UHGV virus genome: UHGV-1354558 | Source of the DNA: a virus | Length of the DNA stretch: 39,910 nt | Direction: 5' to 3' (one strand) | Part shown: positions 13,631 through 16,258 of the stretch, piece by piece | Numbering within the stretch: position 1 is the first letter of the stretch | Layout of the letters: every line of letters starts with the position of its first letter | The notes under the pieces: generated by a model | Told to the model about the DNA's origin: nothing | The model's database searches: none | The model's input: the letters and a program-made list of their open reading frames with translations, nothing else | Program-made: the position numbers and the translations under genes

Positions 13631-16258
13631 ATGGCTAATTACCGTGATTTGTTAGAGCAGGCTGGCGCACGTTACGGTGTGCCAGAAGGGTTGATGACTG
13701 CACTGGGTGCCAAGGAGTCTTCTTACAACCCTGCCGCAGTAAGCTCCGCCGGGGCTGTAGGATTGACTCAGGTCATGCCTGGGACATGGCGTGATATGGG
13801 TTATACCGATGAGCAAATGCAAAACCCCGAATATCAGGCTGACGCTGGCGCGCGCTATCTGGCAAAGATGTACCAGCAGTTTGGTAACTGGCGTGATGCT
13901 CTTCAGGCTTATCACGACGGTCCCGGCAACGTTATGAAGGCAAAGCGTGGTGAATATACGCCAGGACCTGAAGGCCGCGGTTACGTTGATGATCGCTTTG
14001 CTCAATGGGCGGGTGACCCGGTGACAGACTCAACAGTCGAACAGCGCGCCACCTCTGCAAAGGTACATCCTCAGCAAGACCCTAACAACCCGTTTGCACA
14101 ACTGGAAGCACAGTCATCCGAACAAGTATCGGCATCAGGTGTGCAGTCAGACCCAAATAATCCATTTGCTCAGATTGAGCAGCAGGCAGCCAGTCAGCAG
14201 CCACCTCAACCCGTAAGTTCTGTCGCACCGAAACCTGTTCAGCAACAAACAGTTAATCAGGCCAATAATGAACCAGCACGTGAAGAACCATCATCGATGC
14301 AACAAGCTGGCGATTGGCTCACAGGTGGTCAAAGTGCAGGGCAAATTGCAGAGCAGGCTGGTCGTGGTCTGGTAAACATACCATTTGACGTATTGCAGGG
14401 TGGCGCAAGTCTGATTAATGCAATCAGCCAGGGGCTTGGTGGCCCCAAGGTTTTGGATGATGTTTATCGCCCTGTCGATCGACCGACAGACCCTTACGCG
14501 CAAGCCGGTGAAACAATTGGTGGGTATCTCCTGCCAATTGGCACAGCGGCAAAAGCTGCTGGAGCGCCAGCAAAGCTCGCTGGAGATATCGGTTCCGCAG
14601 GAAACATGATTGCAGGTTCACTTGCTGATGCTGCAAATCAGGAGGGTGATTTTGCACAAAATGCTGCCATTAACGGTGGTATCAATATTGGTGCTCAAGG
14701 CGTTCTTTCAGGTGTCGGGCGCGTTATTGCGCCAAGAGTTTCACAGGCTCTTGGTGGTGCAGCACTGAATTCTGCTAATGATGTTTCCAGGATGGCAAAG
14801 TCAGGTGCTGGGCGTCAGTCAATTGCCAGTCAGGCCGCTAATGTCTCCGAAGATGTAGCAAAAGCGGCTGAGTCTGCTGGAATTGATATAAACGCATTAA
14901 CACCAGGAATGCGATCTGGAAGTCGTGGAATTGCACAAGCCGAAGGCGCATTGGCATCAACACCAGGGATTGTTCAGGATGCCCATCAGGCAGCATTTAA
15001 CGAAATATCATCAAAGTTAAGTCGAAACCTTGATGAATTTGGGGCCGCATCTGGAACGGCATCAGAAAAAAGTGCGGCTATAAAACAAAGGATTCTTAAA
15101 AATCTTGATCAGATGAAGGATGCTGAGCGCGCGGCATGGGATGACGTGCGGTCAACAATGCCAAATCAAAAAGCAAGAATGCTAAATGGTAATGCCGTTA
15201 TTCAGGCAGAGCGATCTGCTGGCATACCGCTTACTCCTGAAATGAAACAGTTTGTTCAGGCAAACAATCAAGGTGGAGTAACATTTGATGGCATGAAAGC
15301 ATGGAGAGCGAAATTTGCTGATGCGGAGCAAAAATATAAGCGTAGCGGAGAGGCAAACGCGGCAAGGAGAGCAGGGGAAATACGTCGGGCAATTACTGAT
15401 GATATGCGCACAATGGCGGAAAACGGCGGATTTTTTGATGACTGGCAAAAAGCTAATGATCTGTCTAAAGCGAGGCTATCCGCACAAGAGAGTGCAGAGT
15501 CTGTTTTTGGGCGTGATTTGGCAACAGATGCACTGATTACGAATGGAGTAAAATCTCTTCAATCATCGTCAGCTAAAGGTCTTAATGGTCCTGCCGGATT
15601 CCATTCTATGATCCGCGCGCTGCCAGAATCAGAGCGTGTTCCTGCTATATCATCAATGTTGCAGGATGCTATCTCGCATGGTGTACGTGGTGGCAAATCT
15701 GATGCAGCAGGAATTAACCATATCGCAGGGATACTTACCCCACAAAATGTAAAAGCCATTAGCAGATATTCCTCAGAACTTGGAAGAATTGCTGATGCAT
15801 ATGGCACTCTTGCAAGAGCGGCAGTGAAACCTCAGCAGTATATTGAAAGAACAGGGAGAACTGCCAATGTACTACGCGATCTGGATGCTGGTTTATCCAA
15901 CGTCACATCAACAGTGTTAAATGCAATTGCCAACTCAACATCAGGTGCCATTGTTGGTGGCGCTGGGGGGGGCATTGCAGGCGCTGCCGCGGGTGCTTTA
16001 GTTGGCGCCGGGTTAAAAGGCGCTGTATCTAAAATTGCCACCACACGTAGTGGTCGATATGCGATAGAGAAAGCTGTTCAGGAAGCCACCAAAGCAGTAA
16101 GAGCAGGCGGAAGCAAAGAAGCATTAGCGGCGGCGGAACGCAGATTTATGGCAAATAAAGCCGCCGTAAAAGCAATACGCGATGCTATTGGTAGCGATGA
16201 ATTCAATCGCCTGTCGAGAGCTGGTATTGTCGCCTCGTTAAGCGGTATGAATGAATAG
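13631..16258 (+). CDS. large ejection protein (gp16 position) with N-terminal lytic transglycosylase domain
   Basis: 875 aa. N-terminus carries a lytic transglycosylase signature ([25 protein letters not shown]...[12 protein letters not shown]). Tandem DPNNPFAQ motifs and a Gly/Ala-rich C-terminal segment. Confidence 0.75.

Follow-up and report, generated by a model that had tools for sequence, protein, structure and literature searches.

Gene 16 and its encoded protein

The window analysed here, the whole 39,910-nucleotide (nt) stretch of UHGV virus genome UHGV-1354558, represents the complete ~40-kb genome of a temperate P22-like phage (Lederbergvirus-type), and our subject is its homologue of gene 16, which encodes an ejection (E-) protein. 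An earlier note on this DNA, made from the letters alone, had described the product as an ejection protein of the P22 gp16 type that carries an additional lytic transglycosylase at its N-terminus, and this description was borne out by all of the computational tests available. The open reading frame (ORF) lies at 13631-16258 on the plus strand, stop codon included; as the note had claimed, it stands in the gp16 position and at 875 amino acids (aa) is longer than P22 gp16 (609 aa). Its ATG is immediately 3' of the TAA stop of gp20, and an upstream in-frame start is impossible. The late operon reads terminase, portal, scaffold, coat, gp4 (8274-8873), gp10, gp26 (Sf6-type knob), gp14 (a PF11039 match), gp7, gp20 and gene 16, and the order gp14-gp7-gp20-gp16 upstream of the tailspike region is the same in Dewey, epsilon34, Sf101 and P22. 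The other two ejection proteins are represented by a gp7 homologue (11597-12289, plus strand; PF25688 P22_gp7, E=1.7e-134; phrog_598) and by a gp20 homologue (12299-13630, plus strand; PF16928 Inj_translocase, E=6e-68; phrog_2534) that abuts gene 16 translationally. Downstream of gene 16 lie a convergent lipoprotein-like ORF, mnt, the tailspike gene, a gtrABC-type cluster and an integrase gene, and a dedicated holin and endolysin are encoded elsewhere in the phage. The 875-aa protein itself matches phrog_770 ('DNA transfer protein') over aa 108-835 (E=8e-232) and phrog_342, the T7 gp16 family, over aa 3-229 (E=9e-24); PF26808 is present on its database homologues, and its NCBI PGAP name is 'lytic transglycosylase domain-containing protein'. 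By homology, it is a member of two families, the P22-type gp16 proteins and the Slt70-type transglycosylases.

Residues 1-130 (13631-14020, plus strand) make up an SLT (Slt70-like) lytic transglycosylase domain, in agreement with the motif that had been noticed at the N-terminus. When these residues were checked against Pfam, the SLT profile PF01464 matched aa 7-110 over profile positions 2-110 of 117 with 88.6 bits (E=2.8e-25), well above the curated cut-off of 21.3 bits. The predicted catalytic residue is E29 (codon GAG, 13715-13717, plus strand): E29-S30 align with the catalytic E478-S479 of E. coli Slt70 and with residues 37-38 of T7 gp16 (28% identity over 130 aa), and across 78 homologues E29, S30, A42, G44, Q47, Y76, Y94 and G97 are invariant. 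Motif II (G44-L-T-Q47) is kept, and motif III reads A-Y-H-D-G where the usual form is A-Y-N-x-G. AlphaFold2 models aa 1-130 with a per-residue confidence (pLDDT) of 90-98, and the model is matched by Foldseek at a probability of 1.0 to Slt70 (1qte), LtgA (5o1j), MltE and the N-terminal part of T7 gp16 as seen in the ejectosome tunnel (7k5c_B), with MltF also among the matches. The enzyme fold starts at residue 2-4, preceded by neither a signal sequence nor a membrane anchor.

Such a domain might, alternatively, be a non-catalytic structural or binding module, either anchoring a conduit on peptidoglycan or serving as an ejectosome adaptor. The His that motif III carries in place of a near-invariant Asn could be taken in this sense, as could the fact that most P22-like phages need no such enzyme; however, the Glu-Ser pair and all the other invariant active-site residues are kept in homologues down to 25-34% identity, a retention that pure binding would not demand, and the Asn-to-His change is itself conserved within the lineage. 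We regard a purely structural domain as improbable. His95 is also found in diverged SLT-gp16 homologues that are ~30-40% identical, and because the residue is common to these proteins the change seems to be a variant of the lineage and not a sign of decay. We return to the enzymatic reading, under which the domain, judged from its sequence and its predicted fold, is intact and not degenerate.

The enzyme domain is followed by a predicted disordered linker of ~90 aa, rich in Gln, Pro, Ser and Ala (aa 131-215; 14021-14275, plus strand; pLDDT 30-60); the 96 residues from aa 125 to 220 include 18 Gln, 13 Pro, 12 Ala and 10 Ser. A search of 5.8 billion proteins found no relatives of the linker outside its own family, returning only two partial copies of the same protein. 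The duplicated DPNNPFAQ motif that the earlier note had pointed out is indeed present here, as one copy at aa 150-157 (14078-14101, plus strand) and a second at aa 174-181 (14150-14173, plus strand), the two peptides being identical at 8/8 positions. An exact repeated 8-mer arose in just 12 of 20000 shuffles of the 875-aa protein. We considered a recent tandem DNA duplication and rejected it: six of the eight codons differ between the copies at synonymous third positions, the 72-nt units that contain them share only 53% identity, and neither Tandem Repeats Finder nor a second repeat finder detected a repeat at this region. Since the peptides are identical despite six synonymous differences within units so dissimilar, what has been conserved appears from the sequence to be the DPNNPFAQ peptide and not a recent DNA duplication.

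Equivalents of this peptide are found in homologues, including the second copy's counterparts of the form NxF[ADEV][QE][FLIM]. Aromatic motifs, either NxF[ADEV][QE][FLIM] or GPWxxY (for instance NPFAQF, NIFDQF/NVFDQF, NMFAEF, NFFEQF/NFFAQF and GPWEKY/GPWSNY), flank the SLT domain of gp16 proteins whose identity to the window protein is only 25-34%. The regions around the SLT domain in these homologues are otherwise unalignable, with each protein carrying two to three copies of a lineage-specific aromatic peptide; usually one copy stands straight after the initiator Met-Ala and one or two lie beyond the SLT domain, and the copies are more alike within one protein than between proteins. A six-frame ORF scan of the window and four related loci found this motif only in the gp16 ORFs, the positions in the related loci being 4908 and 5454 in L006, 6007, 6574 and 6625 in L090, 6007 and 6082 in L091, and 6007 and 6541 in L092. 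This leads us to propose, quite tentatively, that the DPNNPFAQ repeats exemplify a short and so far unrecognised docking motif flanking the enzyme head of SLT-gp16 proteins. The pattern would fit selection for binding to a co-evolving, probably oligomeric partner; candidates may include the gp20 tube (compare the 'molecular tape' that T7 gp16 forms on gp15) or a procapsid-targeting site.

The remainder of the protein is a gp16 body with 97.6% aa identity to epsilon34 gp13 and 98.0% to CUS-3 gp16 (over aa 199/217-873). It begins with a conserved N-region (aa 216-375; 14276-14755, plus strand) that is common to nearly all P22-type gp16 proteins and has 69.7% aa identity to aa 53-191 of P22 gp16. 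This is the gp16 stretch most conserved across P22, epsilon34, CUS-3 and Sf101, yet AlphaFold2 gives it a pLDDT of less than 50; probably it folds only within the assembled conduit or against a partner. An all-alpha-helical domain of long predicted helices follows (aa 380-740; 14768-15850, plus strand; pLDDT 70-93), and the body has neither a sequence match nor a Foldseek match in the PDB. A Gly/Ala-rich hydrophobic segment (aa 771-797; 15941-16021, plus strand), which contains the Kyte-Doolittle maximum of the protein (1.63 at aa 773 in a 19-residue window) and where pLDDT is below 50, is a candidate membrane-interacting element; no classical transmembrane helix is predicted at aa 771-797. 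Predicted helices at aa 795-875 complete the C-terminus.

Exchange of heads and bodies

The note had also held that positions 14900-15600 are markedly AT-richer and had taken this as a sign of domain shuffling. The first part of this stands only relative to the upstream part of the gene: GC is 45.9% in 14900-15600 against 52.3% in 13631-14899, but this is near the mean of the whole window (47.3%) and at the 31st percentile of 701-nt windows, and it is the upstream part that is an outlier, being GC-rich at the 95th percentile. From 14231 to the gene end all 150-nt bins show a flat identity of 95-100% to epsilon34 and CUS-3, and the profiles for these two phages contain no mosaic break at either 14900 or 15600. 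Residues 424-657, which this stretch encodes, fall within a single helical domain predicted with confidence. First-codon-position GC is 0.58 in 14900-15600 as compared to 0.68, and its lower GC reflects amino-acid composition together with the uniformly low third-position GC of this type of body. We rejected 14900-15600 as a separately acquired module because identity to epsilon34 and CUS-3 is flat and because the stretch lies in one predicted helical domain; its near-mean GC is in keeping with this.

Compositional analysis along the gene nevertheless did find a real break, at a different place. Third-codon-position GC is ~0.53 over codons 1-175 and ~0.30 from codon 200 on, a change that coincides with a recombination junction at ~14235-14282 (plus strand). 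The junction is placed by megablast ends, third-position GC and identity profiles: in gene coordinates the match to epsilon34 starts at nt 605, that to CUS-3 starts at nt 652 and that to IME10 ends at nt 618, with the crossover at a shared PVQQQ-type stretch near aa 200-217. Domain shuffling is thus real, but the exchanged module is the N-terminal head (aa 1-~205) and not 14900-15600. The other late genes, from terminase to gp20 (1733-13630), have a third-position GC of 0.47-0.60, a range that takes in the ~0.53 of codons 1-175. We note that third-position GC across the gp16 body (14276-16258) is 0.30-0.36 and that it is also low in gene 16 of epsilon34 and CUS-3. The epsilon34/CUS-3-type body looks either to have been imported from a lower-GC lineage or to be under unusual codon constraints.

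The head is found on other bodies, and the body with other heads. The SLT head (gene nt 1-~618) is at least 98% identical at the nucleotide level in Sf101, IME10, APC_JM3.2 and phiKp_30, where it is joined to different bodies (in proteins of 911 and 797 aa), and overall the same SLT head occurs on at least three bodies and the same body with at least four heads. Among database copies of this body, those with the SLT head total 875-876 aa, those that begin MKVTANGKTF... total 707-709 aa, those that begin MAKAWKDVIASPQYQ... total 719-722 aa and those that begin MAYSREQLMTALRNAD... total 704 aa. The four-head set is represented by proteins P0146, P0148, P0121 and P0164, with bodies 97-99% identical to that of the window. 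The MKVTANGKTF... head resembles a module (MDVRLPNG...) found ahead of the SLT domain in two proteins, P0244 of Tatumella and P0279 (from a public sequencing-run assembly), and because it does so heads can, judging from these sequences, be combined in series and not only swapped.

Phages Dewey and Huey have the full-length gene at 99% identity (the Dewey protein is 99.7% identical in aa); the isolation host of both was E. coli K-12 with its O16 antigen restored (PMC11990801). Of 5426 complete E. coli genomes, 660 contain the conserved gp16 region and 70 the SLT head, the latter always at 99% identity or more. At greater distance, an exhaustive search of 1.84 billion representatives returned at least 13 clusters of proteins of 850-1033 aa that have an N-terminal SLT domain and a collinear gp16 body and are 25-34% identical to the window protein, some of them encoded by Serratia marcescens and Tatumella terrea; the SLT-gp16 architecture recurs in the lytic Murrayvirus phage IME_EC2. 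All three of the clusters that were looked up present the order coat, gp4, gp10, gp26, gp14, gp7, gp20, SLT-gp16, tailspike. A scan of GTDB genomes with a generic AYxxGxG pattern picked up ordinary bacterial transglycosylases only, the pattern being unspecific and uninformative on host range. In E. coli FDN-24 (L009, 4001-5752) the SLT-gp16 copy is a truncated pseudogene in a degraded prophage that has lost its upstream virion genes, as is the case for some chromosomal copies.

These comparisons bear directly on the possibility that the long ORF results from faulty annotation or assembly, or from a recent chance fusion of a separate transglycosylase gene with gene 16, and has no functional consequence. 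Truncated pseudogenes in degraded prophages of E. coli, and the difference in third-position GC between head and body, might be cited in its favour. Against it, the identical architecture is present in the plaque-forming phages Dewey and Huey (PMC11990801) as well as in Sf101, IME10 and IME_EC2, and collinear homologues at 25-34% identity occupy the same slot; the comparative data effectively refute this possibility, to which we would give hardly any credence. Because those diverged homologues hold the same syntenic position, the SLT-gp16 architecture appears on comparative grounds to be old and maintained, rather than a one-off fusion. The enzyme-bearing form of gene 16 may even be the older state, with the short heads of the P22 type as replacements.

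A proposed role in genome delivery

We consider it probable, and say so with fair assurance, that gene 16 of this temperate P22-like phage encodes an ejection protein composed of two modules open to exchange, of which the head, by analogy with T7 gp16, would cut peptidoglycan during DNA delivery. Module 1 (aa 1-~205) is, by its sequence and predicted structure, a catalytically intact family-1 (Slt70-type) lytic transglycosylase followed by the disordered tether with its two DPNNPFAQ peptides. Module 2 (aa ~216-875) is by homology an epsilon34/CUS-3-type body comprising the N-region, the helical domain, the hydrophobic segment and the C-terminal helices. We infer that peptidoglycan would be digested at delivery, as it is for T7 gp16, and regard this as sound and as the best-supported reading. 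The analysis itself shows sequence identity, integrity of the domain, synteny and the exchange of modules; it is from homologues that we infer the virion location, the ejection and the muralytic activity of the 875-aa protein.

What is established for related phages allows a sequence of events to be proposed. In P22 the E-proteins exit the virion ahead of the genome and assemble into a conduit across the cell envelope, in which gp20 forms a periplasmic tube and gp16, which is membrane-associated, is placed at the inner membrane (PMC10883804). The gp7, gp20 and gp16 proteins of CUS-3 substitute for their P22 counterparts in viable hybrid phages (PMC10883804). The 875-aa protein would, on this model, be packaged in the virion together with gp7 and gp20 and be expelled via the tail ahead of the DNA, whereupon its body would take the gp16 position at the inner-membrane end of the conduit. 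The tethered SLT enzyme would then cut N-acetylmuramic acid-N-acetylglucosamine (MurNAc-GlcNAc) bonds locally, opening the murein mesh so that the conduit could cross, and the ~90-aa tether would presumably be long enough for the enzyme head to reach the murein layer. As for T7 gp16, whose N-terminal transglycosylase T7 needs for internalising its genome only if the peptidoglycan is highly cross-linked (PMC8954989), the activity would probably be of use mainly where the wall is highly cross-linked and would not always be essential. Such a conditional benefit is to be expected because most P22-like phages are without the head and because the gp4 homologue is also retained.

Several observations weigh against this proposal. 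One protein of the P22 virion, gp4, is already reported to be muralytic (PMC5380687), and because a gp4 homologue is kept in the window as well, the SLT enzyme may be redundant or conditional. Some 590 of the 660 gp16-carrying E. coli genomes are without the SLT head, and most P22-like phages manage without it. A folded domain of ~130 aa would need to cross the tail channel unfolded and then refold. The sole departure of the head from the SLT consensus, His95 for the Asn of motif III, falls in an active-site motif, and the literature searched holds no experimental work on the 875-aa protein or a close relative.

The domain might instead act late, in auxiliary lysis or in wall remodelling at release or assembly, and not at entry. 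Expression of gene 16 from the late operon coincides with that of the lysis genes, and lytic transglycosylases serve as endolysins in some phages; yet the SLT domain is preceded by neither a signal sequence nor a membrane anchor, it is covalently joined to a protein whose homologues are packaged in virions, the phage has its dedicated holin and endolysin, and the precedent of T7 gp16 is for action at entry. Promoter-like sites are not in excess around gene 16, and no internal promoter signal stands out. A role for the SLT head in lysis therefore seems unlikely from the sequence, given that it has no export signal and no promoter signal of its own within the gene and that the phage encodes its own holin and endolysin, and we hold late action in general to be very improbable. 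Action at entry, by contrast, is the reading that we carry forward.

Other genes of the window also merit a brief description. A 173-aa ORF at 16261-16782 on the minus strand carries a lipoprotein-type signal (LLVGC) and runs convergently towards gene 16, the two stops lying 2 nt apart; in the same slot P22 has sieA, and CUS-3 and epsilon34 have hkcB. The ORF matches phrog_6067, a family whose function is unassigned in PHROG, and has no Pfam or NCBIfam match; it is a candidate superinfection-exclusion or moron gene. The tailspike (17157-19334, plus strand) has a P22-type head-binding domain and a beta-helix, and its true start is probably at 17205, the mechanical ORF start adding 16 residues ahead of MSDITANVV. 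A 506-aa ORF at 19372-20892 on the minus strand reads as a hydrophobic multi-pass membrane protein and has no Pfam, NCBIfam or PHROG match. Because it adjoins GtrB and GtrA homologues (20892-21812 and 21809-22171), it probably encodes a serotype-specific O-antigen glucosyltransferase of the GtrC type, with a sequence type not described so far.

Relation to known ejection systems

Near-identical proteins have already been deposited and automatically annotated, and the 875-aa protein is a correctly interpreted variant of a known design. We found no papers that discuss or test the SLT domain in P22-like phages, the work of Casjens and Thuman-Commike from 2011 lying outside the search. The SLT domain is not discussed in the papers on Sf101, BASEL, E212, Kapi1 and the E. 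coli HS phage. The 2011 paper may already mention a murein-hydrolase motif in some gp16 types.

A review states that the transglycosylase domain is absent from P22-like phages (PMC8954989, section 6). The window, Sf101, IME10, Dewey, Huey and the 70 complete E. coli genomes are counter-examples to that statement, and about one in ten of the P22-like prophages with a gp16 region in complete E. coli genomes carries the SLT head. The general picture of DNA delivery by P22-like phages is unchanged by this, but a wall-cutting module of the T7 gp16 type is a common optional head on P22-type gp16, and the ejection machines of short-tailed phages use interchangeable parts. Nature has also supplied near-isogenic gp16 bodies, with the head in Dewey and Huey and without it in Louie, CUS-3 and epsilon34, and such pairs represent a clean system for learning when a virion-borne transglycosylase pays off.

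Among the closest relatives, the 875-aa proteins of Dewey and Huey, annotated 'DNA transfer protein', sit in the same slot and are 99% identical over their full length. Sf101 gp13 (911 aa, annotated 'transglycosylase') and the 797-aa ORF of IME10 likewise occupy this slot and share the head and linker at the nucleotide identity given above, but identity drops to ~40% after ~aa 300 in Sf101 and after ~aa 206 in IME10, where different gp16 bodies begin. Conversely, epsilon34 gp13 (708 aa) and CUS-3 gp16 (719 aa) have the same body and the same neighbours as the window gene, but bear short non-enzymatic heads of 30-60 aa (e.g., MKVTANGKTF... and MAKAWKDVIASPQYQ...) instead of the 200-aa SLT head.

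Virion-borne wall-degrading activities at entry are known from other short-tailed phages, namely P22 gp4, a tail accessory factor that is reported to be a virion-associated lysin (PMC5380687), and the ejection proteins SP6 gp36, phiKMV gp36 and SU10 gp20 with their peptidoglycan-hydrolase domains (PMC9509320), but the carriers and positions differ from the gp16 of the window, P22 gp4 being a neck protein and phiKMV gp36 having its lysozyme at the C-terminus. A further close parallel is with T7 gp16 (internal virion protein D). Both proteins are the largest and last-encoded of a three-gene ejection cassette, and each starts with an SLT domain whose catalytic Glu is equivalently placed, a non-globular stretch coming next; T7 gp16 is an internal virion protein that is ejected before the DNA, and we would assign the same behaviour to the 875-aa protein by analogy. 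The differences lie beyond the enzyme. BLASTP similarity is significant only over aa 2-119 of the window protein, only the SLT part matches when Foldseek is used to compare it with T7 gp16 (7k5c_B and 7eyb_I), and the ~1100-aa body that follows the SLT domain in the 1318-aa T7 protein is not matched in the 875-aa protein. The region after the SLT domain is a Q/P-rich linker with NPF motifs here and 'molecular tape' sequence in T7 gp16, and T7 gp16 is part of an ordered core stack whereas the P22-type E-proteins are not (PMC8954989). Because similarity stops at the SLT domain, the 875-aa protein falls outside the T7 gp16 family, but by analogy it would work like T7 gp16.

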